A stretch of DNA of 46,337 bases, from assembly GCA_019057375.1 (NCBI GenBank), contig DXJF01000069.1, positions 1 through 46,337 of the forward strand, written 5' to 3'. How positions within the stretch are numbered: position 1 is the first letter of the stretch; the number at the start of each line of letters is the position of its first letter. Source of the stretch: Candidatus Heimdallarchaeota archaeon. Its GTDB lineage: Archaea > Asgardarchaeota > Heimdallarchaeia > Heimdallarchaeales > Heimdallarchaeaceae. Positions 12,038-33,916 of the stretch are shown here, one piece after another. The translations under genes were made by a program, and so were the position numbers. Below the pieces are notes generated by a model that ran no database searches, was not told the origin of the DNA, and saw only the letters and a list, made by a program, of their open reading frames with translations.

Positions 12038-13467
12038 TTGGGAACTAAGATGCTTTCAAAGTATGACATCATCATATTGGGAGGAGGTACAACTGGATTG
12101 GTTACTTCAAAATATGCTGTTTTATTAGGTGCGAAAACACTCTTAATAGAAGCAGATAGAATTGGGGGAGATTGTACATGGACTGGCTGTATACCAAGCA
12201 AATCATTAGTATTTGCTTCCTCTCTAGTTAAAAAAACTTCAGAAACAGTTGATTTAGGATTTATTGACGCTGATTATGAGGTTAAATTTAATGCTGTCAA
12301 GGACTATATCAAAAAAACAGTAAATGACATCTATGAGGAAGAAAAACCAGAAGTTCTTCAAAAAGAAGGAATTGATGTATTAATTGGTGAAGCTCGTTTT
12401 GTTTCATCAAAGGAAGTTGAAGTAGATGATCAGAGATTTAAAGCTAAAAAATTCATTATTGCTTCAGGAGCAAAACCAATAATTCCAAGTAAGAATATTG
12501 AAGGATTAGATGATGTACCATATCTTACTTCTGATTCTATTTTTGGAATTCCTGAACTTCCTAAACATTTGCTTGTTTTAGGTGCAGGACCTATAGGTTG
12601 TGAGCTTAGTCAAGCATTCAAGAGATTAGGCTCAAAAGTTACTTTAATAGATATGAAGAAAAATATTTTACCTCGTGAACATAAGAAAGTTAGTTCTGAG
12701 TTAGAATTAATTCTAAAAGGTGAGGGTATTCGATTGGCTTTGGGAGATCCTGTGAAAAAGGTTAAAAAAAATGCTAAAGGTGCAGTAGAAGTTTATACAA
12801 AAACAGGAAATAAGTTGATTGGTTCAGATTTACTTATTGCTGTCGGCAGAGAACCTGCAATTGATAAATCAAGTCTGGAGAAAGCTGGAGTTAAGGTTTC
12901 TAATAATGAAATCATTTTAGACAAATATCTAAGAAACACATTTATGCAGCAGGAGATTGCGTAACCCAATACAAATTCACTCACATTGCAGGATATCAAG
13001 GTTACATAGCTGTTCGTAATGCCTTGCTACCCTTTAAAAGCAAAGGAATGCCTAAATATATCTCTTGGACAACCTTTACTGACCCAGAAGTTGCATTTGC
13101 GGGAGAAACTAACAAAATTAACTCAATTGTCAGAGATGAGTTTGAGAAGCACACTTTACTTAACAATCAAATTGATAGAGCTATAACTGATAACCAAGTA
13201 GAAGGATTTATTCAGATATATTCTTCAACAAAAGGGAAAATTACTGGAGCATCTATTGTCTCTTCTAGAGCTGGTGAATTGATAAATGAGTTTTTACTTG
13301 CTATGTTAAGTAAGACCAGTATTTCAAAAATAGCTACGATGGTTCATTCTTATCCGACATATTCAATGGGAAACATGCAACTAGCAGGAAATGTTGTGGA
13401 AAAAAATATTTTTCAAAGTTATCTAGGTAGATTCTTAAAGAAACTTTCAAGAATTTATAGATTATAG
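12038..13467 (+). pseudogene. FAD-dependent pyridine nucleotide-disulfide oxidoreductase (MerA/E3-like), frameshifted near 12934
   Basis: ORF1 has G.G..G, redox-active GGDCTWTGCIPSK and GAGPIGCE. After YLR the conserved KHIYAAGDC..FTH.A..QG..A..N continues in the -1 frame into ORF 13024..13467 (FTDPEVA, GELI, HSYPT). Confidence 0.8.
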
Positions 13468-13478
13468 AAATAAGTAAA

Positions 13479-13739
13479 TTATTCTAAAGGCCATTTTTTC
13501 TCAACTAGAGGGGATTCACACTTCCTACAGACATTTTGCTTAAATTGAGAATAACCGAATTTGTCAATTCCGTTTTCAACTTTTGTCGCTTGAGTACAGA
13601 TAAAATCAAAATTGCAGTTTGGGCAATGAAAATATGTGTTAGGTGTGCTTATCATAGGTGAAATCATCTGTCGAGGGCATGTAGACCCCTTTATTGCTTT
13701 TGAACAGTCACATACTAGATGATTTCCTAAGATAGTCAT
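13479..13739 (-). CDS. Small Cys-rich protein (paralog of 28118..28441)
   Basis: From ATG 13739 it aligns without gaps to ORF 28118; 8 Cys and 2 His are shared. Confidence 0.75.
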   Translation of the reverse strand: MTILGNHLVCDCSKAIKGSTCPRQMISPMISTPNTYFHCPNCNFDFICTQATKVENGIDKFGYSQFKQNVCRKCESPLVEKKWPLE

Positions 13740-13813
13740 GGGTAAAAAACAAAAGAACACATTAAAAAATTTTGGATAGAGAGAGAGAAACAAAAAAAAA
13801 GAAACAAGAGTGA

Positions 13814-14281
13814 TTAAGGTAAATTGATAGGTATATCACCCAACTCTTGCATTAAGAAATTCAGAGGTATTCCAATATATATGGGTGTAGCTGAAATTTC
13901 AGCAATCAGTGCTATTGAATTTCCATCGGTGATATAAACTATTATATCCATCTCAAAGATAACCGTGAAATTAATTACCTGCGATGTTCCTAGTTTTACA
14001 GTTACCTGTAAAGGATCACCAAAGACCTCTGTCCCGTTCATTATAATTATATCAATTCTTGCTGATTTTGGTATGTACCCTAGTGTAGGAGTCGTAATAG
14101 TAGTTGTTACATCTACTGAACTATTATCAGGAGCTAAAGCAAAAACAGGAGTTGAATATGAGAAAGCTCCAGGATTGTCATTGAAAGTTTTCCAGCTCAA
14201 ATAGACGTCTACACCAATAACAACGCCCCCCGCTAAAATCAGTAAAAAGATTACCAGAAATACTTTTGTTCCAGTTCTCAT
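13814..14281 (-). CDS. Hypothetical protein with N-terminal membrane anchor and beta-rich domain
   Basis: MRTGTK followed by a hydrophobic helix; the remainder is beta-strand-like. Confidence 0.65.
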   Translation of the reverse strand: MRTGTKVFLVIFLLILAGGVVIGVDVYLSWKTFNDNPGAFSYSTPVFALAPDNSSVDVTTTITTPTLGYIPKSARIDIIIMNGTEVFGDPLQVTVKLGTSQVINFTVIFEMDIIVYITDGNSIALIAEISATPIYIGIPLNFLMQELGDIPINLP

Positions 14282-14401: not shown

Positions 14402-15277
14402 ATGACAAAAAATTTTGGTATCATTACTGACTCTGGCGCTGATTTCAGTTTAGAGTATCAGAAAAAGAATGAAATCATACTTATTCCAACCAGAATTATG
14501 GTTGATGACTTAGAATACATTGACCGTCAGAATATAACAAGAGAAGAAATCATTGAAAAGATGATTAACGATAAAGCCAAAACCTCAACATCTGTAGCTT
14601 CTCCTGCTGATTTTCATCAAATAATTTCTGATTCACTTAAGAAGTATGACAAAGTACTCTACATTGCAATAAGTGCTAAGATGTCTGCTACACTACAAAA
14701 TGCCATATTAACTGCAAAAAAGTTAAAAACTGATAATTTTATTGTTTTTGATACAGAAACAGTATCTTGGGGTATGACGCTATTACTTGATCATGCAGTA
14801 AGAAGAAAAAATCAAGGTATCTCTTTAAACAAAGTTATTGAAGAACTTGAACAAATGAAATCCAACCTTAAGATCTTCTTCATGGTAGATACACTAGAAT
14901 ACCTAAGAAGGGGGGGAAGAATAGGAGCAGCTAAAAGTCTTCTTGGAACATTAATTGGCGCCAAGCCTATATTAACTGTTATGGATGGAGAAATATCCGC
15001 ATCTGATACAGTCAAAAGCTTCGAAGCTGGAATGGCATATTTCAAGGATATAATAGAAGAGAAGAGCATAGAATTCGGGAATTATGTAATTACTATGATT
15101 TATGGTCTAGATACACCAGAATTCAAAGGATTTTCTGCAGAAATTGAAGAGCAATTTAAGCCTTTACTTTTCCATTACGCAGCTATTGGGGCAAACATTA
15201 TAAGTCATGCAGGGCCAAAATTGTTTGGATTTGGGATAATTAAGATTCCTGATGATGCTGTAGATACTTACAAATAA
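14402..15277 (+). CDS. DegV family fatty-acid-binding protein (FakB-like)
   Basis: IITDS.AD, STS..SP.DF, ISAKMSAT.QNA, FDT..VS.G, VDTLEYLRRGGRIG, L..KPIL...DG, SHAGP. Confidence 0.92.
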   Translation: MTKNFGIITDSGADFSLEYQKKNEIILIPTRIMVDDLEYIDRQNITREEIIEKMINDKAKTSTSVASPADFHQIISDSLKKYDKVLYIAISAKMSATLQNAILTAKKLKTDNFIVFDTETVSWGMTLLLDHAVRRKNQGISLNKVIEELEQMKSNLKIFFMVDTLEYLRRGGRIGAAKSLLGTLIGAKPILTVMDGEISASDTVKSFEAGMAYFKDIIEEKSIEFGNYVITMIYGLDTPEFKGFSAEIEEQFKPLLFHYAAIGANIISHAGPKLFGFGIIKIPDDAVDTYK

Positions 15278-15355
15278 ATGATTAAAATGATATTTGTAAC
15301 ATCAGCTAATTTTTTTAAAGAAATATTTTAAAAGTGTTTTTCTATCACATTCCTA

Positions 15356-16774
15356 ATGGATGGTTTAAAACCTCGATTTGCTTATTTCAAAAAGAAAATC
15401 CAAATGAATAAAAAAGAATTATTCTTCAGAATTTGTCTTATTCTGGTTTTATTTGCCATCTCCGCGATGATACAACATTTCGTATCAAGTTGGTTCCTAA
15501 GAATAAATGGTGGTTCTCTAGACTATTTTCATGAATCAGGTGTTTACTGGGAGGCTGTAAGCGATGTTAAAGAGTATTATGAGCCCTACCTTTTGGCATT
15601 TCGTGAGGGAAACTGGGATATTTATCAACCTGGACAAGAACTTCCATTAAAAGTATATTATTATGGTCCTTATTTTGTGTATTTCCTAACTTTTATTTCT
15701 CTCTTCGTAGATTTATTTACTAATGCATCTGAAGCTTTTGTTGTTGAACAAACTGTTAGGATAGCTCCTTTTCTGTTTGATGCTTTTTCTACCGTAATGA
15801 TATTTCTAATTATTGATGGAAAATTAAGTAAATCCGAAAAATCAAGGAAACGAACATGTATTGCCATCTGTGTTGCTTTATGCTATAATTTTATGCCTAT
15901 TGTTTTATTGTATAATGGGGTTCTAGGACTTAATTCATACATGTTTACTTCTTTAACCCTACTCTCGCTTTATTTCTTTGAAAAGAAAAAACCCATGGCA
16001 GCTGGATCTATATTGACTTTGTCCTTTCTCACTAAGCAGATGTCTCTTTTCTTTCTACCAATCTGGTTTCTAATTTTAGTTAGGAATGATATAGAAGAGA
16101 GTATAAAGTTTCTTATGGCATTTTTCTTATCATTTATACTCTTATCTCTTCCTTGGATTTTCAAACATCCCACTTATTACATTGGCGTTCTTCTAGGTCA
16201 AGGTTATTCAGGCATAACACATTTTTCAATTAGTCAGGAATATATACTATTTTCAACTACTCCTTTTCATACACTACTTTTCATAGGTGCTAACAAACTA
16301 GCTTATGCGTACTATATTCTTAACAAAATTTATATTCCTTTCATAGTTTTCTCTTTGATTTTTTATAGAATTGCATTAATCAAAGGAGATCATTTAATTG
16401 ATAATAGAAAATCATTTTTCACCTTTAATGCAATTTATATCATAGGTATACACATGTTCATTTCTCGTGGTGTTTACAAAAATTACTATACTTTTCTCAT
16501 TCCTTTTATTCTTATAGCAATAGCTGAATGGATCACAAATATCAAAAGAAACTGGATGAGTATTGTCCTTTTGATTTCAATGCTTTTTTGGTTAATTGGG
16601 GTAAATATTCTTATTATCTGGTTGTCAAAATATATTCATACGGTACTCTTAGCTTTATTGTGGGTTCCACTTTTCATCACTTATAACAAGGAAATGCATT
16701 TAGCGTTGTTTCTAATGGAAAATTATGAAAAAACAACAAAATACTTCAAGAGAATCTTACATATAATTAAATGA
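15356..16774 (+). CDS. GT-C superfamily polytopic membrane glycosyltransferase (GT87/PIG-M-like)
   Basis: TM1, then a luminal loop with a Y.YGP.F.Y motif, D...T..I, N.Y, and a L.KQ...F.LP motif across ~11 TM. Start may be ATG 15404. Confidence 0.6.
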   Translation: MDGLKPRFAYFKKKIQMNKKELFFRICLILVLFAISAMIQHFVSSWFLRINGGSLDYFHESGVYWEAVSDVKEYYEPYLLAFREGNWDIYQPGQELPLKVYYYGPYFVYFLTFISLFVDLFTNASEAFVVEQTVRIAPFLFDAFSTVMIFLIIDGKLSKSEKSRKRTCIAICVALCYNFMPIVLLYNGVLGLNSYMFTSLTLLSLYFFEKKKPMAAGSILTLSFLTKQMSLFFLPIWFLILVRNDIEESIKFLMAFFLSFILLSLPWIFKHPTYYIGVLLGQGYSGITHFSISQEYILFSTTPFHTLLFIGANKLAYAYYILNKIYIPFIVFSLIFYRIALIKGDHLIDNRKSFFTFNAIYIIGIHMFISRGVYKNYYTFLIPFILIAIAEWITNIKRNWMSIVLLISMLFWLIGVNILIIWLSKYIHTVLLALLWVPLFITYNKEMHLALFLMENYEKTTKYFKRILHIIK

Positions 16775-24586: not shown

Positions 24587-25366
24587 TCACTCAGGAAGTT
24601 TAACATTTCTTGTTGCTGGATTGAAATCAATTACATCTAATTCTTCCAGATGCAATAATGATGATTTAATCAGAACAGCTGTAGAGTCAATAAGGTCTGC
24701 AATTTCATCAATTGTCATACTTCTTGGATGTGCTTCTACAAGTCCTAAGTAAATCTTTCCTTGATCTGTTGAATTCAAAATCGAACGTATACTTTCATTT
24801 TGAGCCATTATAGGCTCTTCTTTCGATTTGAAATCAGTATATTCTTTTTCAGTTGACTCTAAATTCTTCTTAAGTTCATCTTGAAGAGTTTTAGTTTGTT
24901 CGTAAATAGTTTCAAGTGAATCAAATTCAGCTTTCAGCTTAGCAAGTTTATTAAGGGCTTCTTCATATTGTGCTTCTATTTTCTTTAGATTCTTGTCCTT
25001 TTCACTACTGAGAATATCCTTTTCCTTAACTTGAGTTCTTAAATCTTCCATTATTTGATCTTTTTCTGCAACCTTTTCTAGTTCAGCTTCAAGTTCACTT
25101 TGAAATGCGTTAAATTCACTTATTGCTTTTTTTAGTAATTTTTCTTGTACTTTGTATTTATCAGTGAAACTTGAATTAGTAGATTTGAGTTCTATTTGAA
25201 CACTCTTTAATCCGTTATCAATATCTCTAGAAGATTTTTCTAGTTTCTCCAAAATAACATCTTTTTGTTTCTTATCTTCATTGATGAATTTTTCAAGTGT
25301 TCTTATCTTTGTCTCGAGATTCTTTATATCTTCAGTTAATTCTTCGTTGCTTTTCTTCTTAACCAT
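24587..25366 (-). CDS. Long coiled-coil protein with C-terminal winged-helix domain
   Basis: About 195 aa of heptad-like E/K/L-rich sequence, then Q.KIY..LVEAHP..MTIDEIADLI....V.IK..L..LEELDVIDF (wHTH-like); AGGTGAT RBS. Confidence 0.7.
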   Translation of the reverse strand: MVKKKSNEELTEDIKNLETKIRTLEKFINEDKKQKDVILEKLEKSSRDIDNGLKSVQIELKSTNSSFTDKYKVQEKLLKKAISEFNAFQSELEAELEKVAEKDQIMEDLRTQVKEKDILSSEKDKNLKKIEAQYEEALNKLAKLKAEFDSLETIYEQTKTLQDELKKNLESTEKEYTDFKSKEEPIMAQNESIRSILNSTDQGKIYLGLVEAHPRSMTIDEIADLIDSTAVLIKSSLLHLEELDVIDFNPATRNVKLPE

Positions 25367-25455
25367 AAGATCACCTACAAATATATAATATACAATTAAG
25401 AAAGAAGATGTTTTAAAGATTACTTAAAGGGAAATAGAAATTAAATAAAAAATCA

Positions 25456-25480
25456 GAAAAGAAAGAAAAAGAAAGAAAAG
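25456..25480 (-). terminator. Oligo-U archaeal terminator after small protein S1
   Basis: A-rich gaaaagaaagaaaaagaaagaaaag on the + strand directly downstream of the S1 stop codon. Confidence 0.5.
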
Positions 25481-25487
25481 CTTAAGC

Positions 25488-25751
25488 TTAATGGAACGTT
25501 CCAATAATCTTGAATTTTAATTCTAATGCTTTGTTCCTTTCTTTTTCTAGCTCTTGTCTGATTTTATAGTTTTGATAAGCTTCATATCCTGGACATTTTC
25601 TATTATCATGCTGACATTCAAATAATATTTCAGCGAGCTGATCAATTAATTTGATTACTTTTTCTTCATCATCAATATTCACATTAGATAATGTTTTAAC
25701 ATTCTTGAAGGATCTTATTAGCTCGTTTTTATAGTCTGATTTTAGTGCCAT
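25488..25751 (-). CDS. Small helical protein S1 (87 aa), paralog of S2
   Basis: GGTGG RBS before ATG 25751; gapless 27/87 identity to S2 by hand count. Confidence 0.8.
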   Translation of the reverse strand: MALKSDYKNELIRSFKNVKTLSNVNIDDEEKVIKLIDQLAEILFECQHDNRKCPGYEAYQNYKIRQELEKERNKALELKFKIIGTFH

Positions 25752-25856
25752 GATACCACCTCTGATTATATGATTAGTACTAGTCTTATTAACTATCAAC
25801 CACAATCTGTGATTACAAATTGTGTCATTTTCTACCATTAAAAGGATATAAAGAGG

Positions 25857-26120
25857 TTAAAGGAAAGAACCTTTGTGTAAAAGAAGCTTGGACAGGGATT
25901 TGTTATGCTCGTTTTTTAGAGCTGTGCGAAGGATATGATCCTCATACTTATCGTGATCTTTTGAGTATTCATCTGCAAGAGTATAATTATACATATTCTC
26001 TGCAACCTGATTAAGAATCTGGAATAAGCTCTCTTCTTCAACAAACTCGTAATTAAATAGCTCTTTTAATGCTTTGAAATTTCTTATCAATTTATTTTTT
26101 TGCTCGATTTTCAATACCAT
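25857..26120 (-). CDS. Small helical protein S2 (87 aa)
   Basis: GGGTGA RBS, its own BRE/TATA and operator, and a paralog of S1. Confidence 0.8.
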   Translation of the reverse strand: MVLKIEQKNKLIRNFKALKELFNYEFVEEESLFQILNQVAENMYNYTLADEYSKDHDKYEDHILRTALKNEHNKSLSKLLLHKGSFL

Positions 26121-26170
26121 TTTTATTTTTCACCCGATTTTTTCTTATTCCTAAGAGATTGTAATCAATA

Positions 26171-26217
26171 TTCTCAATCTCTGAGAACATGTTCCCATAT
26201 ACATATATAAATGTTTC
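26171..26217 (-). promoter_or_regulatory. S2 promoter: BRE/TATA GAAACATTTATATAT plus TTCTCA-N5-TGAGAA operator
   Basis: + strand ttctca-atctc-tgagaa (26171-26187) and atatataaatgtttc (26203-26217); same layout as at 30769 and 32028. Confidence 0.75.
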
Positions 26218-26312
26218 TTATGGCGCGAACGTAAGATACTGCATGAAGAATTTATTCTTGCCTCAACGAAAGTTTAATATATACTTCTGCGAAGAGAGTA
26301 TACAGGAGAAAA

Positions 26313-27206
26313 ATGAATATGAGCACACTAGGGGGATATAACGACGTTCCTGAAGATTATGATCATTTATTAAAACAAGTAGAAGTAATAAGGGATCGAG
26401 AGAAAGTGGAGATGTTCTACGATCAAGGTTACTGGCCTATTCTGGCAATTTTAAGAGAGGGGCGTTTAACAGTAAGAGAAATAACTGCTAGATCAAATCA
26501 ACTTATTGAAAAAAAAGAATTACCCAAACTTAAAGAAAAATTAGAAAATTGGGAAATCCCTGAAGATAAAGAAAAATTGGAAAAGATTCTAAATAAAATA
26601 TCTGATTGGGAAACACTTCAGACTAAAGCTAAAGATTATAGTAAAGTTTTGAATGAAGACAAAATTAGTAGTTTAATAAAAAAAGAGAAATTCTCCAAAG
26701 AAGATGTTAAACTTATTAGAGATGTTATGTTGTTGTATAAACTTGACCATCACAAGAAATCTGATAAGACAATTTATAGATATATAAATGAATTAACTCA
26801 ATCAGGTCTATTAATAAAAGCTGGACAGCGAGTAATTACTGGTAAAACTGCTACAGAAACACTGTATGCACGTAGAGCAAAAATTTTCCTTTTGCGTCAA
26901 CAGTCCCATGATACCTGGAAATGTGATGAATGTAAAACTACACTTAAAAAAGTTGGTGCGCTTATAGGGTTATCAAAAAATATGGATTCACCATCAGTAG
27001 AAAGCCTAGCAAAACTTATGTCTAAAATAGATATGTACCATGAAGAAGAACAAATTAGATTGTTTGAGCAAAATGAGAAGGAAGTTCTAGGAATCATTAA
27101 AGACTGTAGTTTTAAGGAAACATCACATATTTTAGATACTTTTAGGATTGTTCATTTGCTAATGAATTTTCAAGAATTTAAAGAAGAGCTGGAAGATTGT
27201 TGCTGA
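26313..27206 (+). CDS. Winged-HTH (ArsR-like) transcriptional regulator, paralog A, with ~80-aa insertion
   Basis: PIL..LRE..LTVREI, KSDKTIYRYI.EL...GL..KAGQRV.TG.TATE.LYAR.A family motif shared with B-E. Confidence 0.8.
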   Translation: MNMSTLGGYNDVPEDYDHLLKQVEVIRDREKVEMFYDQGYWPILAILREGRLTVREITARSNQLIEKKELPKLKEKLENWEIPEDKEKLEKILNKISDWETLQTKAKDYSKVLNEDKISSLIKKEKFSKEDVKLIRDVMLLYKLDHHKKSDKTIYRYINELTQSGLLIKAGQRVITGKTATETLYARRAKIFLLRQQSHDTWKCDECKTTLKKVGALIGLSKNMDSPSVESLAKLMSKIDMYHEEEQIRLFEQNEKEVLGIIKDCSFKETSHILDTFRIVHLLMNFQEFKEELEDCC

Positions 27207-27263
27207 ATCAGCCTAAAATCTCTTCTTAGCATTCTTATTTTTTATCCAGAGGATAGAAAAAAC

Positions 27264-27301
27264 ATGTTTCTCTTTCAAAAAGTTTAAGTGGAGAGAAACA
27301 T
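27264..27301. promoter_or_regulatory. 10-bp inverted repeat bracketing the BRE/TATA of regulator B
   Basis: atgtttctct-[ttcaaaaagtttaagtgg]-agagaaacat. Confidence 0.5.
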
Positions 27302-27336
27302 TATTTAGAAGGTTAGAAATAAATATACTGTCTGAA

Positions 27337-28044
27337 ATGGAGAAAACTAACCAATCTGATTCTGAGTACAGAGATTTTATTGATAAAGAGTTCAAACAAG
27401 ATGGGTTCAAAATCATCAGAGATTCTGAAAAAATAGAGTTCTTCAAAGATAAGAATTATTTTACGGTATTAACTGTTCTGCGAGAAAAACCTATGACAGT
27501 TAAGGAAATAACTGTAAAATACAATCAGAAAATAGAAGAGAAAAGCAAAATATTTAACTGGACTGAAAGGGAGAGAACAGCCAGATTAAGAACAGATAAG
27601 ACTTTATACAGATATATCAAAGATCTTGTTAGGACAGACTTTATTGTTCAAGCAGGTCAAAGAGTTGTACTCGGTAGAACAATTACAGAAGCACTTTTTG
27701 CACGAACCGCAGTATTATTTTTCTTAGACGAAGAACCCATAGAATGGTGGGAGAGTAGGGTGGGAGAAAAAACGATAGAAAAAATTGCTGAACTAATGGA
27801 ATTATACTTAGACATTCCTAAACCTTCAACAGATTGTATAAAAAAGCTGGTTATCAAAATTGTTAAGTTTAATCAAAAAGAATTTTTCAAAGTTTTTGAG
27901 CAAGGCGCAGAAAAAGCATCGAAAGTTGTTTATTCATCAGAAAGGCTAGAGATAAATAGAGCTGTCCAAATTGTTAATATTATTTTAGCAATCATAAAAT
28001 CAGATGAATATGAACAAGAACTAAGAGATTGTCTTGGACTTTGA
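27337..28044 (+). CDS. Winged-HTH regulator, paralog B
   Basis: VL.VLREKPMTVKEI..KYN, RTDKTLYRYIKDL, AGQRV..GRT.TEALFARTA, WWES. Confidence 0.8.
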   Translation: MEKTNQSDSEYRDFIDKEFKQDGFKIIRDSEKIEFFKDKNYFTVLTVLREKPMTVKEITVKYNQKIEEKSKIFNWTERERTARLRTDKTLYRYIKDLVRTDFIVQAGQRVVLGRTITEALFARTAVLFFLDEEPIEWWESRVGEKTIEKIAELMELYLDIPKPSTDCIKKLVIKIVKFNQKEFFKVFEQGAEKASKVVYSSERLEINRAVQIVNIILAIIKSDEYEQELRDCLGL

Positions 28045-28117
28045 TTGTTTTTCCAAAAGGGGACCTGGGACCTTATTACAAGGTAAGTATTTATAGTACT
28101 TTCTTCTAGCAGTTAGT

Positions 28118-28441
28118 ATGACAGAAATAGCATACCACCTACGATGTGATTGTAAGAAATCAGTAAATGCTTATTCCTGTCCAGTTGGGTTGTTAAAACC
28201 AACTACTAAGCACAATTATGACTATTACCATTGTTCTTATTGTGATTTTGACTATATTTGTGATCATTCCATCAAAATAGAATTTGATTATGATGACAAA
28301 GGACTGCCAATGCAAAACACAATAGTATGCTCCAGATGTGGAACACAGCTAGAAGTATACTTATGGCCAAAACAAGGAGAAGAGCTGGGAGAGAGCGATT
28401 ACAAGACAAGATATGTAAGCATTTATAAACGAAACTATTAG
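28118..28441 (+). CDS. Small Cys-rich protein (paralog of 13479..13739)
   Basis: HLRCDC..CP..YYHC..C.FDYIC..VC..C...L....WP. Confidence 0.78.
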   Translation: MTEIAYHLRCDCKKSVNAYSCPVGLLKPTTKHNYDYYHCSYCDFDYICDHSIKIEFDYDDKGLPMQNTIVCSRCGTQLEVYLWPKQGEELGESDYKTRYVSIYKRNY

Positions 28442-28549
28442 CACTCAAGAAACTTTTCTTCAATAATGTAACTGTGATATTTTATATGACATGAAATCTT
28501 TGTTTTGTTAAGATGAAAATTTAAGAATAACAAGTACATACTCATCTCT

Positions 28550-29371
28550 ATGGTAAAGAAATCTCGTCAAAGAATAGAAAAATTCCCAATAACTCGTCAA
28601 ATTCTTTCAACATATAATGAAATTATTGTTCAATTCCCATATATGAGAGGTTTAGTTGAAGTTGATGTCACTGATGCCAAAAATAAAATCAGTTCATATG
28701 CGGATAAAACTGGTAAAAAAATATCCTTTACAGGCTGGGTTATCAAAGCAGTTAGCGAAGCTATCAAAGAGAACAAGATGATTCACGCATATAGAATTAG
28801 CAAAAGAAAAATAGTGATTCCTGATGAAGTTAGATTTGGTATAATGGTAGAGAGAAAATCTGAAAATGGCACTAAAATTCCCTCAATGGAAGTAATTTCA
28901 ACCCCTGAAAGCAGAACAGTAATTGAAATATCAGATGAAATACGAGCTTTACAAGATCTAATTATTGATGAAAAAGAACAACTCATGGGGAATCAAAATA
29001 TCAAGAGAAAACTGCAAAATATTTTATTCGCTATACTACCAGATTTCATTAGTAGAAGAATTATCAAGGGAATAGCAACCAATAAGGAGTTCATTACTAA
29101 ATTCAGTGGAACAGTAGGAGTTACAGCTTTAGGAATGTTTGGAAAAGATGCAAGTGGATATGCTATACATTTCCCAACAAGAACAATCGATTTAGCTCTG
29201 GGAACAGTTTCAGAGAAACCTAGGTATATTGATGGTAAACTAGCAAAACGAGATATTCTGAATGTGACTTTCAATATTGATCATAATATTGTAGATGGTG
29301 GTCCTGCTGCTAGATTCGTTTCTCGAGCAATAGAATTGATGCAATCAGCTTTTGGATTAGAAGATTTATAG
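28550..29371 (+). CDS. 2-oxoacid dehydrogenase acyltransferase (E2) catalytic-domain-only protein
   Basis: EVDVT, SFT.W.IKA...A, GT..VT..G, DH.IVDG..AARF (catalytic His); no lipoyl or E3-binding domain. Confidence 0.85.
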   Translation: MVKKSRQRIEKFPITRQILSTYNEIIVQFPYMRGLVEVDVTDAKNKISSYADKTGKKISFTGWVIKAVSEAIKENKMIHAYRISKRKIVIPDEVRFGIMVERKSENGTKIPSMEVISTPESRTVIEISDEIRALQDLIIDEKEQLMGNQNIKRKLQNILFAILPDFISRRIIKGIATNKEFITKFSGTVGVTALGMFGKDASGYAIHFPTRTIDLALGTVSEKPRYIDGKLAKRDILNVTFNIDHNIVDGGPAARFVSRAIELMQSAFGLEDL

Positions 29372-29375
29372 ACGA

Positions 29376-30026
29376 CTAATTTTCAGGAAAACTCTGCTGT
29401 AATTCCTTATTATAACTCTCAGGATGACGAAAAATCATTACTAAGGATAACAACTTAACAACTCTCATTATTTCTTCAGTCGAGCTGTCTTTGAAGATTT
29501 CATTAATTTTTCGTTTATTTTTATCGAAGAAACTGCTTAATTCTAGAGAGGTTAATGAATAAATTTTCAGAAGTAATTCTTTCAAATCATTATGGGAAGA
29601 ATCATCTTTATTGGTATGAAATGAAATCAACTTCCTTACTATTTCTATTAGCTTTTTACTTTCTTCAGATTCCCAATATTTTCTCTCAATTAAAACCATA
29701 GGAAACATTACAAGTGCAACGTTTGCATAGAGATTTTCCGTTGCGGTAGAGAATCGAGGTGTTCTCCTTCCTGCATTGATTACCAAGCCCACATCTTCAA
29801 GCTTACGAACATAATTATAAATAGATATTTCAGATTTCGGTGGAATATTTGTCTTATTATATGAAGAGGCTATCTCTTTGATAGTAGCAGGACCAGATCT
29901 TAGAATACGTATAATTTTAGACAAATTAGGATCACTATATGCTTTCAGTTGTTTTCTGTTTTGAATAATAAAAAGAGGTTTAGATTGAACAGTTATCAAA
30001 GTCTTAATATTGTCTTTAGTAGCCAA
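29376..30026 (-). CDS. Winged-HTH regulator, paralog C
   Basis: DP....II.ILR.GP.TIKEI...YN, KSE.SIYNYV..L...GLV..AG.R, TATE.LYA, YWESEES. Confidence 0.8.
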   Translation of the reverse strand: MATKDNIKTLITVQSKPLFIIQNRKQLKAYSDPNLSKIIRILRSGPATIKEIASSYNKTNIPPKSEISIYNYVRKLEDVGLVINAGRRTPRFSTATENLYANVALVMFPMVLIERKYWESEESKKLIEIVRKLISFHTNKDDSSHNDLKELLLKIYSLTSLELSSFFDKNKRKINEIFKDSSTEEIMRVVKLLSLVMIFRHPESYNKELQQSFPEN

Positions 30027-30030
30027 TTTA

Positions 30031-30678
30031 TTACCTCTTTATGTTGTCAAGCATCTTTAATTCTTTAAGAGATTCGACATAATTTTGGGGATTAAGTAGT
30101 ATAACTAGAGTTTCAAGCATTCTAGTTAGTTTATCAATTTGTTCAAAATCCAAATCAGAACAGAGTTTATTCACACTATCAGGATCTTTTTCGAAAATTT
30201 CAGCAACAATCACTTCTGATTTTGAATATATGTTCATAAAAAAAGATGATAGATCATCAATTTTAAACGGTTCAGAGTCAGTATACAGACTTAAAAGCTG
30301 TTGGCATTTCTCAAGAACATTCTTACTCTCTTCTGTTTTCCAGAAATCTTCAGATAAAATTACGGGATAATAGAGTATCGCGCGACGACTGTAAAGCACT
30401 TCACTAGCAGTTTTACCAGTAATTACTCGCTGACCAGCTTTCATTACTAGGCCTTGTTTGATAAGTTCTTGTAGATAATTGTAAATACTTGTTTGTTTCC
30501 TAGGTTTGTCTGCAATTTTGTTGTATTCATCAACTAAGTCTTTAATCGGTAGAGGTCTCTCTCTTAAAGCAATAAGGATATGAGTATATTTTGGATCAGT
30601 GACTAAATCAAATTTGAATTGCTCTTTCACAATACAAATTTGTTCAGGTTCATAAGTGATAAAATCCTGATACTCCAT
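30031..30678 (-). CDS. Winged-HTH regulator, paralog D
   Basis: DPKY..IL.ALRE.PL.IKDL..EYN, KQTSIYNYL.EL..QGLV.KAGQRVITGKTASE.LYSRRA, FWKTEES. ATG 30678 preferred from paralog alignment and an upstream TATA. Confidence 0.8.
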   Translation of the reverse strand: MEYQDFITYEPEQICIVKEQFKFDLVTDPKYTHILIALRERPLPIKDLVDEYNKIADKPRKQTSIYNYLQELIKQGLVMKAGQRVITGKTASEVLYSRRAILYYPVILSEDFWKTEESKNVLEKCQQLLSLYTDSEPFKIDDLSSFFMNIYSKSEVIVAEIFEKDPDSVNKLCSDLDFEQIDKLTRMLETLVILLNPQNYVESLKELKMLDNIKR

Positions 30679-30768
30679 TAATTCACATCTAAAACATTTG
30701 ACAATAAAACTTTTTCCTTGGAAATTTAAAAGTTTTGTCTTTTTTTGAATATCAGTCACAAGTTATGC

Positions 30769-30814
30769 GAAACATTTATATATTTTATGATAGATATTCT
30801 CACCAAGTGAGAAT
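30769..30814 (+). promoter_or_regulatory. S3 promoter: BRE/TATA GAAACATTTATATAT plus ATTCTCAC-caa-GTGAGAAT operator
   Basis: 15-mer at 30769-30783 is identical to that of the S2 promoter; perfect 8-3-8 palindrome at 30796-30814. Confidence 0.75.
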
Positions 30815-30914
30815 GACAGTGGAAGCACTAAAATTTTCAGAAGAGACTTAGCAAGACAAGAGACGGACTAATTTATCTCCTTGTCTTTTCTGAAAATTAA
30901 CATCTGGTGATTGA

Positions 30915-31202
30915 ATGACTCAGGAAATCAAGCAAAGAAGTCCAATAAACACAGTAAATGCACTAGTTTCAAAATTAAACAATGCTAAGGATATCTCTGA
31001 GGAAACTTTACTAAGAATATTTGATCAAATGGCTTCTGAATTTACAGTTACGCAACAGGAGTTTAATTTTCTACCAGATTTCAGGATTGAGTACAGTCAA
31101 TTAAAAGAAGAAACGGATGAACAACAAATAAAAACTAGAAAAAAAGTAGAATGTAGAGAAGATACTAAACTTTGTGGAACATATGCCAGTTTAATCGCTT
31201 AA
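30915..31202 (+). CDS. Small protein S3 (95 aa), divergent from regulator D
   Basis: GGTGAT RBS and its own promoter; EETLLRIFDQMASE resembles S1/S2 EE.(V/L)..(L/I).(D/N)Q.AE. Confidence 0.7.
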   Translation: MTQEIKQRSPINTVNALVSKLNNAKDISEETLLRIFDQMASEFTVTQQEFNFLPDFRIEYSQLKEETDEQQIKTRKKVECREDTKLCGTYASLIA

Positions 31203-31228
31203 GTTAAGATGAATAAAAAGTGCAATAT

Positions 31229-31263
31229 GATTTGAAAAAGCTCACCTTTTCAAATCTTTTTTT
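31229..31263. terminator. Hairpin plus U-tract between convergent S3 and regulator E
   Basis: gatttgaaaa-agctcacc-ttttcaaatc (10-bp stem) followed by a T run. Confidence 0.55.
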
Positions 31264-31928
31264 TAACAACCACATTTTTCGAGTTCTTTTGAAAAATCTT
31301 TGCTTTTCATTAGGAGAATTAAAGTACCTAAGATATCAAATATATTGTCAACTTCTTTGAATGTAAAGCCTGAAATTATTTTATAAATTGCATCATTGTT
31401 TTCTTCAAAGAATGCGCCCAGCGTATCTGAGGATGTTTTATAAGTTTTATTCAAAAGATTACCTAGATCTTCAGCAGATATCGTAGAGTTCTCTTGATAG
31501 AGACCCAGTATATCTCTAAGTGCGTTTAGAGTTTTTTTACTATCTTCACTTTTCCAGTAATCTTCTTTATCAGTTAGATTCCAAAATATTTTTGCAGTTC
31601 GACCATACAAAGTTTCAGCGGCAGATTGACCAGTTTTGATTCTTTTTCCAACTTCTTTAACAAGGTCTATTTTATCTAATTCTTTTACATACCTGTAAAT
31701 TGTCATTTCAGATTTTGTTGTTATTTCAGATTTTGGATCTTCTGCAAGTTGATTATACTTCTCAACTAATTCTTTAATTGTTAAAGGTCCCTCACGAAGA
31801 ACAATTATTATAGGTTCCATGTTTTTATCAAATAATTTAGAAGTAATTTCTTTATCTCTTATAAGCTTGACACCTATTTGAGGTCGAGTAATAACGTCTT
31901 GAGTTTCATCAGAGTTCATTTTGTTCAC
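31263..31928 (-). CDS. Winged-HTH regulator, paralog E
   Basis: LIRDKE, PII.VLREGPLTIKEL..KYN, KSEMTIYRYVKEL, VG.R.KTG..A.ETLYGRTA, YWKSEDS. Confidence 0.8.
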   Translation of the reverse strand: MNKMNSDETQDVITRPQIGVKLIRDKEITSKLFDKNMEPIIIVLREGPLTIKELVEKYNQLAEDPKSEITTKSEMTIYRYVKELDKIDLVKEVGKRIKTGQSAAETLYGRTAKIFWNLTDKEDYWKSEDSKKTLNALRDILGLYQENSTISAEDLGNLLNKTYKTSSDTLGAFFEENNDAIYKIISGFTFKEVDNIFDILGTLILLMKSKDFSKELEKCGC

Positions 31929-32027
31929 TTTTTCGTTTCATGATAAGTATGTTTTAATCATTAATAAGTGTTTTTATAAGACATGATGGGTGTCATTTCA
32001 ACAAATGTGGCAAGAATTTCATAGAAC

Positions 32028-32075
32028 GAAACCTTTATTAACACATAATGGTATATTGTTCTTAAGCAATGAGAA
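32028..32075 (+). promoter_or_regulatory. S4 promoter: BRE/TATA GAAACCTTTATTAAC plus TTCTTA-N5-TGAGAA operator
   Basis: gaaacctttattaac (32028-32042); ttctta-agcaa-tgagaa (32059-32075), one mismatch to the motif. Confidence 0.65.
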
Positions 32076-32087
32076 TGGTGAAAGAAA

Positions 32088-32324
32088 ATGGCAACAACAA
32101 CAATCTCAAAAAACTCAAAAATCTCTGATTTCAGGCTCAGAGAAGAAGTATCAGTGTATGACCGTCTTACAAAATTAACCAAAGACGCAAAGAAGGTCTA
32201 TTCCTTAAATGGATCTAATCACAATAACCTTGAGGTTTCAACTGAAGTAGTTGAAGCTCATTTAGCTAGACAAAAAGCAAAAGCTTTCAGAAGCATATAT
32301 CACACTGGTGCATTCCATCACTAG
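32088..32324 (+). CDS. Small protein S4 (78 aa), divergent from regulator E
   Basis: GGTGA RBS, its own promoter and an oligo-T terminator; C-terminal KA...G.FH resembles S1/S2. Confidence 0.72.
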   Translation: MATTTISKNSKISDFRLREEVSVYDRLTKLTKDAKKVYSLNGSNHNNLEVSTEVVEAHLARQKAKAFRSIYHTGAFHH

Positions 32325-32346
32325 TTTTTCTTTTTTTTCTTTTTTT
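32325..32346 (+). terminator. Oligo-U terminator after S4
   Basis: A long T-rich tract broken by single C bases follows the stop codon directly. Confidence 0.55.
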
Positions 32347-32395
32347 CCTCTTTAGAATACAATAATCATTAAATACTTACATTAAGCTATTAATC

Positions 32396-33916
32396 TTGAT
32401 GTCTTCTCCAGATTTTGACACAATTGTAATTGGAGCTGGAGTCTCAGGTCTTTCATGTGCAGCTCATTTAGCTAAAGAAGGTAAGAAGGTAATGGTCTTC
32501 GAACAAGGGAAAAAACCTGGTGGGTATTGTTGTTCATACACCCGTAAGAAACTTGTTTTTGATCCAGGTGCTCATTGGATCTTAGATGGACCGGGGTTTA
32601 ATTCTCTATTAGAGTCTTTGAACACTGAGCCAATAGATTTCATTCGCTTGAATTCTGTTTATAGGATACTTGGTCCAACAAAATATGTTGATATTCACTT
32701 TTCTGAGAAAGAGCTTTTTATTAAATCTATGAGAAAATCTTTCCCTCATGTTAAAGATGCAAATCTAACTAAGCTGATAGATATAGCAGATACCATTAAA
32801 AAAGAAATGGACGAAATGCCGACTGATAGTCTAGAACTGCTTTCACTATTTGGTAAAGTTAAAACTGGCGTTACTATGCTCTTGAAAGCTCGTAATATGA
32901 TGAAATACAGCTCCCTTAAGCTTCAGGTTTTCTTAGATGAATTATTCCCGGGAGACGATTATAAGGACTTAAGAGCCGCTCTCCACATAGCTCCAGGTGA
33001 AGACATAACAGCTATTGCACTTTTAGTTTTTCTAGCTTTTGGGATGGAAAAATCTGCATGGAGTCCAAAAGGTGGTGCTCAAAAGATATCCGATGCTCTT
33101 GCAAAAGCTGTTAAGAAGAATGGGGGAAAAATAGTTTACTCCAAGAAAGTTGTGAAAATTGAAATTGAGGGTAAAAGAATCAAAGGAGTTGTATTAGACG
33201 ATAAATCTAAATTTACAGCTAAATCTGTCGTTGCAGCCATAGATGCGAAACAGCTTTATTATCAACTATTGAGCCCAGAAATAATTCCAAAGAAGTTAAA
33301 GCGCAAAATTGATGAGACACCCTTTGCAGATTCTTGGTTTTCTGTTTCCATTGTAACAGATTTGAATCCTACAAATTACGATTTTGATGGTTCAGATGTT
33401 CTTTTACTGAACACTAATGACATTGTAGAAGCAGGTAAACCGAACAATCCTGAGAAAAACAGTTTTGTAGCAAAGTTTAACACACTTCACGATGATTCCT
33501 TTAAACTTATAGGAGCAAAAGCAGAACATCATGGGATCCATCTCCTCTCTCCAGCTACCTTTGATTATAGCAATTACTGGAAAGCAGGAAAGAAGCTAAA
33601 TCGTGGGGAAAAATACATTAAATTCAAGGAAAAATTTGCTCAAAAGCTTATAAAACGGATGGAAGAAAGAATACCTAATCTTAGCAAACACATTGTTCAA
33701 ATGGATATTAGCACACCCTTAACGTATCATAGATACACTCTCAATCATTATGGCTCAGGATTGGGATGGTCAGATATGCTCCTTTGGAAACAAAAAATCA
33801 GATTCATGAAAGGCCTTTACGCATGTGGCATGTGGAGCTTTCCAGGACCAATGGTTGAACCTTCAATAGAATCTGGAAAAAATGCAGCTGAATTAGTATT
33901 AAAGTATCTCAAATAA
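32396..33916 (+). CDS. Phytoene desaturase / retinol-saturase-like FAD-dependent oxidoreductase
   Basis: VIGAGVSGL..A..LA..G.KV.VFEQ...PGGY, FD.GAH, PKGG...I..AL, TPLT..RYT....GS..G, LY..G....PG. Confidence 0.8.
   Translation: MMSSPDFDTIVIGAGVSGLSCAAHLAKEGKKVMVFEQGKKPGGYCCSYTRKKLVFDPGAHWILDGPGFNSLLESLNTEPIDFIRLNSVYRILGPTKYVDIHFSEKELFIKSMRKSFPHVKDANLTKLIDIADTIKKEMDEMPTDSLELLSLFGKVKTGVTMLLKARNMMKYSSLKLQVFLDELFPGDDYKDLRAALHIAPGEDITAIALLVFLAFGMEKSAWSPKGGAQKISDALAKAVKKNGGKIVYSKKVVKIEIEGKRIKGVVLDDKSKFTAKSVVAAIDAKQLYYQLLSPEIIPKKLKRKIDETPFADSWFSVSIVTDLNPTNYDFDGSDVLLLNTNDIVEAGKPNNPEKNSFVAKFNTLHDDSFKLIGAKAEHHGIHLLSPATFDYSNYWKAGKKLNRGEKYIKFKEKFAQKLIKRMEERIPNLSKHIVQMDISTPLTYHRYTLNHYGSGLGWSDMLLWKQKIRFMKGLYACGMWSFPGPMVEPSIESGKNAAELVLKYLK

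Follow-up and report, generated by a model that had tools for sequence, protein, structure and literature searches.

Probable local repression by an expanded family of PH1932-like winged-helix factors in a Heimdallarchaeia lineage

The window analysed here, a stretch of 46,337 nucleotides from a Candidatus Heimdallarchaeota archaeon (GCA_019057375.1, contig DXJF01000069.1), contains five paralogous winged-helix-turn-helix (wHTH) proteins, A to E, and four small genes, S1 to S4. We consider it probable, at roughly 60% for the explanation as a whole, that PH1932-like winged-helix repressors of the ArsR type have expanded specifically in this lineage, within one Heimdallarchaeia family, and that the S genes are the cargo of the repressor paralogs. 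Asgard archaea are the closest prokaryotic relatives of eukaryotes, and their gene regulation is almost uncharted. The locus provides a candidate DNA site for the structurally solved, functionally blank PH1932-like family, and this site is conserved over several sampled Asgard families. It further provides a small, well-defined regulon and a family of small proteins that is under selection, restricted to the lineage and apparently governed by two distinct switches. Since every part is short enough to be synthesised, binding, repression and partners are open to in vitro testing without a cultured host.

The nine open reading frames form three head-to-head units, a layout already described in the first-pass annotation. 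S1 (25488..25751, minus strand) and S2 (25857..26120, minus strand) diverge from A (26313..27206, plus strand) and B (27337..28044, plus strand), which lie in tandem. C (29376..30026, minus strand) and D (30031..30759, minus strand) face S3 (30915..31202, plus strand); only 4 nt separate D from the downstream C, and a GAGGT site is located within the 3' end of D. E (31263..31928, minus strand) is paired with S4 (32088..32324, plus strand). As had been noted, every small gene has its own ribosome site, of the GGTG type, and T-rich, terminator-like tracts follow the stop codons of S1, S3 and S4. The S1 reading frame also exists, but its start had been placed at 25838 and was moved to 25751 as the most likely position, where a GAGGTGG site is found; orthologues are likewise 87 aa long.

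The motifs by which A-E had been recognised as paralogs were present, and the five proteins aligned over their full length with 27-35% identity. Regulator A carries an insertion of ~60 aa preceding the recognition helix. All wHTH matches of A-E to Pfam were below threshold; HTH_5 (ArsR) was matched by 27 of 59 family members (best E 2.5e-8). When the PDB was searched with the family profile by hmmsearch, 1uly_A was matched with an E value of 2.9e-14, profile positions 15-207 corresponding to chain residues 3-183. For regulator E, an AF2 model with a pLDDT of 92.7 was submitted to Foldseek, and 1uly (E 9e-11) and 2cwe (E 2e-9) emerged as the only strong fold matches (TM 0.54-0.61); lower-ranked matches span the wHTH alone. 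Both are structures of PH1932 from Pyrococcus horikoshii OT3. Judged by profile and predicted fold, A-E are full-length homologues of PH1932, with which they share ~20% identity, and probable ArsR-type factors with the same two-domain fold of an N-terminal wHTH and a C-terminal helical part.

To our knowledge, no operator or regulon has been described for PH1932, and our literature search revealed none for PH1932-like factors, PH1932 appearing as a family label only. In contrast to PH1932, the family described here has grown to 11 paralogs in the genome, whose arrays are tandem and divergent and for which an operator and target genes can be identified. Classical ArsR/SmtB metal sensors share with A-E a wHTH of probable ArsR type and, as proposed here, dimers that bind an imperfect palindrome and derepression by a ligand. 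Unlike these sensors, the regulators have no conserved metal sites, since Cys and His are absent from the invariant and nearly invariant columns of both family alignments. They also possess an additional helical C-terminal domain of ~100 aa, and their targets are not metal-resistance genes.

Three copies of the palindrome TTCTCA-N5-TGAGAA are present in the window, at 26171, at 30797 and, with one mismatch, at 32059, compared to 0.52 expected occurrences, and all are situated in divergent intergenic regions. This bears out the proposal that the S2, S3 and S4 promoters share one operator. At the S2 promoter, the putative operator TTCTCAATCTCTGAGAA (26171..26187) is preceded at a distance of 24 nt by a predicted BRE/TATA element, GAAACATTTATATA (26204..26217, minus strand). 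The S3 promoter combines a predicted BRE/TATA element, CGAAACATTTATATA (30768..30782, plus strand), with the operator TTCTCACCAAGTGAGAA (30797..30813), 22 nt after the TATA start. The S4 promoter has a TATA-like box, TTTATTAA (32034..32041, plus strand), and the operator variant TTCTTAAGCAATGAGAA (32059..32075), directly followed by a GGTGA ribosome site. In two other MAGs, L022 and L023, the S2, S3 and S4 operators are retained despite changed spacers. The S3 site is found there as exact palindromes at the same place, the TTCTTA left half-site of the S4 operator is kept, and the block GAAACCTTTATTAACA of the S4 promoter is invariant across the three genomes. Conserved blocks at the S promoters correspond to BRE/TATA, operator and ribosome site.

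The distance from TATA to operator is 22-25 nt for S2, S3, S4, S5 and a C45-like gene, which in the window would place the palindrome over the transcription start of the divergent neighbour. At D the geometry is different. Its probable TATA box lies downstream of the operator, so that the site could either activate or repress D; the quasi-symmetric TATA of the S3 promoter may also serve D on the opposite strand. The promoters of A and E showed no operator. An inverted repeat in the A-B spacer (GTTTCTC...GAGAAAC, 27266-27298) was discounted as an operator, as it is not conserved in L022 or L023. A search of positions 25000-32600 against Rfam gave no match.

Since the operator would sit on the start site of the divergent neighbour, we favor a local-repressor reading. 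Each factor would bind DNA as a dimer, as suggested by the palindromic site and by natural fusions: proteins of 450-520 aa with two family stretches account for roughly one in five of the top 150 representatives of the family (two were inspected). Heterodimers are probable for A-B and for D-C, the co-expressed tandem pairs, the gap between D and C being only 4 nt. The co-localization of sites and genes points to the 17-18 bp palindrome TTCTCA-N5/6-TGAGAA as the binding site. On an occupied operator TBP and TFB could still bind, whereas recruitment of RNA polymerase would be blocked, leading to repression. The helical C-terminal domain is expected to mediate dimerization and probably senses a signal that releases the DNA. 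All paralogs carry the same recognition-helix motif and the same half-site; the paralog acting at a given promoter is for this reason not assignable, and cross-talk is likely.

MDR1, LrpA and Phr are archaeal repressors that bind past the TATA box, at the transcription start. Together with TrmB, MDR1, LrpA and Phr/PF1790 share with the present regulators a palindromic site 22-25 nt past the TATA box and, as predicted for the latter, a dimeric wHTH and local control, often of a neighbouring gene, but they belong to other families. We know of no case in which at least five paralogs share one half-site in one locus. The circuit is real and conserved, but its logic is that of an ordinary local repressor and not of a new kind of machine. 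The suggestion of an undescribed type of system was not supported, as PH1932-like ArsR-type factors with an operator over the start of the divergent neighbour represent a classical arrangement.

Genome-wide, eight exact palindromes were found (six N5 and two N6, compared to ~1 expected per spacing), all of them intergenic. For seven of these, the nearest of the 11 paralogs is no more than 165 bp away, although the paralogs together with flanks of this length make up only ~0.3% of the genome as estimated from coordinates. The eighth (C154) has no adjacent paralog and lies before a GNAT gene with a paralogous counterpart beside paralog C89b. Palindromes with one mismatch fall mostly within coding regions, matching chance. 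Because the palindrome recurs beside family genes of four further Asgard families, it is the predicted operator of the PH1932-like family. The genes it controls here would be mixed: S genes, two GNAT-like genes, a C45/AAT-like hydrolase, methylase-like genes and a membrane-protein ORF. The S proteins therefore look like regulated outputs rather than obligatory partners. In other Asgard families that lack S genes, the operator lies beside family members and would control unrelated genes. The proposed genome-wide association held phylum-wide for the operator, but was found for small genes of the S type only in two genera (g1 and g2). The idea of a duplicated regulator/target module with a common operator was borne out. 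The whole array is conserved in other Heimdallarchaeota MAGs, in three MAGs within a syntenic chromosomal block, and the small genes are under purifying selection.

Under the repressor reading, the S genes would be regulated cargo, encoding three-helix proteins of 78-95 aa and, in 34-aa versions, the last helix alone. S1 and S2 are small helical proteins of 87 aa each and share 31% identity; the resemblance of S3 (95 aa, a divergent member) and S4 (78 aa, S4/S5 subtype) is weaker. S1-S4 have in common a K-x-K-A-L...G-x-F C-terminal tail, and in the form KxKAL...LLHxG(S/T)F it ends all members of the family. The family comprises 52 clusters, and every cluster bearing a source name derives from Heimdallarchaeota. 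Orthologues of S2 form 22 clusters with 55-100% identity and are nearly all exactly 87 aa long; the length of S3 differs among genomes (69 aa in L022). The dN/dS values were 0.17-0.33 for S1, 0.08-0.28 for S2 and 0.3-0.66 for S4. S1 and S2 are under purifying selection. An AF2 model of S1, built from a four-sequence alignment, showed three helices (pLDDT 68), and Foldseek returned no fold match in the PDB for this low-confidence model. Likewise, the ESM Atlas contained no relative of the S proteins, matches to Pfam and NCBIfam, toxin families included, did not rise above noise, and our literature search revealed no account of these proteins.

The S2-S1 spacer contains a second operator-like element, ACACAATTTGT...ACAGATTGTG (25801..25825, minus strand). 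Its sequence is unlike the first operator, and L022 and L023 retain it in their orthologous spacers. As this spacer has its own conserved element, S1 is not simply the second gene of an S2 transcript. A near-identical element precedes both 34-aa S-tail micropeptides (C12 and C41), suggesting that S1 and the two micropeptides would answer to a second, different operator of the form ACACAAnTTGT...TTGTGG.

The S proteins might also be feedback partners, the tail helix of S binding the C-terminal domain of the neighbouring regulator as an anti-repressor or co-repressor, so that each unit would be a self-contained switch. The genome contains seven full-length S genes, five of which are paired head-to-head with paralogs whose operator they carry. 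This pairing is retained in the genus and in its sister genus. S genes were found only in g1 and g2, and paralog matches per genome reach their maximum in g1 (up to 13). A pairing this strict, across two genera, might indicate a role beyond that of cargo. However, the same family and operator are associated with unrelated genes, here and in Asgard families that have no S genes, and the two remaining full-length S genes and both micropeptides are not adjacent to any paralog and are served by other operators. Co-phylogeny of S and regulator subtypes was not apparent in the paralog tree, which is poorly resolved. A profile-profile comparison, in which S was tested as a decoy of the C-terminal domain, revealed no relation between the S and regulator families. 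Complex prediction for E and S4, the single pair modelled, gave a score of 0.00, the fold of S4 itself being uncertain, and this score weighs neither for nor against an interaction. We regard feedback by S as unlikely, and the former proposal that S proteins are regulator ligands, anti-repressors or toxins found no support, given the unrelated genes beside the operator and the S members unlinked to paralogs.

A still more doubtful variant is that the S proteins and their 34-aa versions are diffusible partners, with the shared C-terminal helix docking either onto the helical domain of the PH1932-like regulators or onto a single common target in the cell. If true, the array would act as a transcription switch operated by small proteins, for which archaea offer no described counterpart; its pairs would be specific to each paralog, and the second operator would supply a further input. 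RRNPP signalling, which combines a TPR receptor with an exported pro-peptide, differs in both features. The C-terminal domain of the regulators matches PH1932 by profile and fold and not a TPR receptor, and the S proteins, read directly from their sequences, have charged, hydrophilic N-termini and no hydrophobic leader.

It is very improbable that an unlinked factor of another kind recognises the palindrome and that the paralogs are simply its neighbours. The exact C154 site would be consistent with such a factor, but the clustering of the other exact sites around the paralogs speaks against it, and the association recurs across deep divergence in the four other Asgard families. Furthermore, spacer length tracks regulator phylogeny: N6 sites are used by w56 and by the f6 pair, which group together in the tree (93/84 support). 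A toxin-antitoxin-like or defence module, in which the wHTH protein would be the antitoxin-like repressor of a small S toxin or S effector, would explain why each genome has several pairs of a small protein and a neighbouring DNA-binding protein, but is hardly credible, since S and regulator genes are divergent with separate promoters and not co-transcribed in one operon as in type II systems, S matched no toxin family in Pfam or NCBIfam, the array lies in the conserved syntenic block and not in a patchy mobile context, and the JGI label 'YafQ' on one S1 orthologue was rejected, the sequence being that of a plain S1 orthologue.

Concerning the S tail, C-terminal docking tails of the HbYX or GQYL type occur in proteasome activators, where the motif ends the protein and its penultimate residue is aromatic. 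A similar reading of the S tail is a weak lead only, because the S tail keeps no fixed position at the very C-terminus. The conserved Gly is located three residues from the end in 30 of the 52 clusters and four residues from it in 15, and four clusters have 7-8 residues past this Gly. The residue after S/T is F, L, Y or I.

The window has a low GC content (∼32%) and belongs to a genome assembly of 3.47 Mb (159 contigs, 89% complete); all homologues with a named source are labelled Candidatus Heimdallarchaeota. All open reading frames listed in the first-pass annotation were present. The paralogy of the winged helix-turn-helix (wHTH) regulators A (26313-27206, plus strand), B (27337-28044, plus), C (29376-30026, minus), D (30031-30759, minus) and E (31263-31928, minus) was borne out by full-length alignment (27-35% identity), in which the quoted motifs were found. 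The small genes S2 (25857-26120, minus), S3 (30915-31202, plus) and S4 (32088-32324, plus) had been delimited correctly. S1 is a gene as proposed, but its start had to be revised, giving 25488-25751 (87 aa), since a GAGGTGG site lies upstream of the new start and the orthologues have 87 aa. Ribosome sites of the GGTG type upstream of all four small genes and T-rich tracts 3' of S1, S3 and S4 were likewise recovered. Synteny with GCA_030603365.1 and GCA_029856355.1 extends over the whole array, S1 through S4. Two genes unrelated to the array are embedded in it. One encodes a Cys-rich zinc-ribbon-like protein of 107 aa (28118-28441) and has held its position at the syntenic loci of both MAGs; the other encodes a stand-alone 2-oxoacid_dh acyltransferase catalytic domain (28550-29371) and has held its position in GCA_030603365.1 (locus L022). 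A 2-oxoacid_dh acyltransferase also adjoins a regulator-family member in a third genus (locus L031). Directly downstream of S1, a gene with synteny kept in other MAGs (24587-25366, minus) encodes a 259-aa coiled-coil protein with a weak PspA/IM30-like match, whose C-terminal segment looks winged-helix by eye.

The shared operator TTCTCA-N5-TGAGAA, postulated from the window, occurs there three times (0.52 expected), always within one of the three divergent intergenic regions. Genome-wide, six exact sites with N5 and two with N6 were found, where ∼1 is expected per spacing. All eight are intergenic, and seven have one of the eleven regulator-family genes no more than 165 bp away. The eighth is located upstream of a GNAT gene paralogous (E 1e-15) to the one that diverges from the family member at C89:28637. 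Most sites with one mismatch fall within coding sequence, as would be expected by chance. Two or three N6-type sites surround the promoters of the paralogs on contigs C90, C150 and C56, which suggests that these paralogs are autoregulated. The palindrome (N5 or N6) also flanks regulator-family genes of four other Asgard families, where it adjoins, from case to case, the regulator's own promoter, a methylase-like gene, a membrane-protein ORF of 890 aa or a GNAT-like gene; the recognition element is thus old and family-wide. The palindrome is genuine and most likely serves as the operator of the PH1932-like regulator family. A TTCTCA-N6-TGAGAG site at C57:7339-7356, 8 nt past a TTTATAA box and immediately upstream of pyrB-pyrI, could either add to the regulon or have arisen by chance. 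An inverted repeat GTTTCTC-N19-GAGAAAC in the A-B spacer (27266-27298), enclosing the TATA-like AAAGTTTAAG, was rejected as an operator; it is not conserved in the two orthologous loci.

The promoters of S2, S3, a further small gene on contig C131 (S5) and a C45/AAT-like gene on C89 share the block (G)AAACATTTATATA, with the palindrome 22-24 nt further. The S4 promoter reads GAAACCTTTATTAACA, at a palindrome distance of 25 nt. Archaeal transcription starts ∼25 nt past the TATA box, and therefore the operator covers the transcription start. The archaeal repressors MDR1, LrpA and Phr block polymerase recruitment from this same position. In an alignment of orthologous intergenic regions from three genomes, the conserved blocks are BRE/TATA, operator and ribosome site. 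The operator spacer varies freely. All three genomes retain the unusual TTCTTA half-site at S4. On C89, a regulator paralog is flanked by the genes of two C45/AAT-like (Ntn-hydrolase type) proteins (13081-14151, minus, and 14967-16082, plus), which are paralogous to each other and apparently secreted; one of these two genes has the S-type promoter with operator.

Against Pfam and NCBIfam, all wHTH matches of A-E were sub-threshold. A 59-member family profile matched PH1932 of Pyrococcus horikoshii over both domains (E 2.9e-14), and the AF2 model of E (pLDDT 92.7) gave strong fold matches to 1uly and 2cwe only. An HTH_5 (ArsR domain) match was obtained for 27 of the 59 members. An exhaustive HMMER scan yielded 411 clusters (50% identity) at an E-value cut-off of 0.001, 324 of them reaching 1e-10. 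In the phylum, a match is present in 117 of the 201 genomes sampled. About one fifth of the best 150 representatives have 450-520 aa and two family stretches; two were inspected, and both proved to be complete fusions in tandem. Given these fusions, the palindromic site and the D-C junction of 4 nt, the regulators probably work as dimers, including heterodimers of A with B and of D with C. Paralogs of the source taxonomic family form one clade (88/94 support), indicating a lineage-specific expansion; the deeper order is poorly supported. Regulator A carries a lysine- and glutamate-rich insertion of ∼60 aa within its wHTH, after the second helix and before the recognition helix, present in its orthologues (276-322 aa) and absent from other paralogs.

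S1-S4 form one protein family with S5 (C131:6274-6510, head-to-head with a regulator paralog), S6 (C150:99854-100126) and S7 (C54:31531-31791). They are predicted, with low confidence, to be three-helix proteins. The family ends in K-x-K-A-L-x7-G-(S/T)-(F/L/Y), and the Gly is conserved 3 or 4 residues from the C-terminus in 45 of 52 clusters. All 52 are unnamed or 'hypothetical', and every source-named one is from Heimdallarchaeota. S1 and S2 are real genes under purifying selection (dN/dS 0.08-0.33); for S4 it is weaker (0.31-0.66). Within the sampled class, the family occurs in 11 of 12 genomes of its own genus and both of the sister genus, and was not found in three other genomes of the same family or 43 of other families. 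Searches of Pfam, NCBIfam, PDB folds and the ESM Atlas found no relatives. The small proteins thus constitute a well-defined orphan family.

The duplicated module of regulators and targets is genuine and conserved, and its statistics are sound. The first-pass annotation had proposed it as a candidate for an undescribed system; it is more probably a local repressor circuit of the ArsR type in a variant rich in paralogs, conventional in mechanism, and it offers a useful way into gene regulation in Asgard archaea. A possible action of the small proteins on the regulators has found no support so far, and profile comparison showed no relation between the S family and the regulator C-domain. The S2-S1 spacer contains a second conserved element, ACACAATTTGT...ACAGATTGTG (25801-25825). 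A near-identical element followed by AGGTGCAAAAAATG lies upstream of two 34-aa ORFs, C12:84094-84198 (minus, C-terminus LILHKGSFL) and C41:664-765 (plus, C-terminus MVLVNGTLL). Each has a strong ribosome site and is a one-helix version of the S tail, and both appear to be micropeptides of the family that have escaped annotation. S7 closes an operon of three small-protein genes (62, 53 and 86 aa; C54:31531-32175, minus; locus coordinates L015:1032-1676), which is preceded by further palindromes, TTACTGCA/TGCAGTAA, distinct from the other S-gene operators. With the second element at S1 and the micropeptides and the other palindrome at S7, the S family would thus answer to more than a single regulator, a pattern more in keeping with outputs than with dedicated partners. 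The 53-aa protein of the S7 operon (...KRARRTRRAKARSRFP...) is homologous by eye to a 64-aa gene product at C150:117123-117317 (minus), encoded divergently from the C150 paralog among three TTCTCA-type sites. The two look like a second small-protein family linked to PH1932-like regulators.
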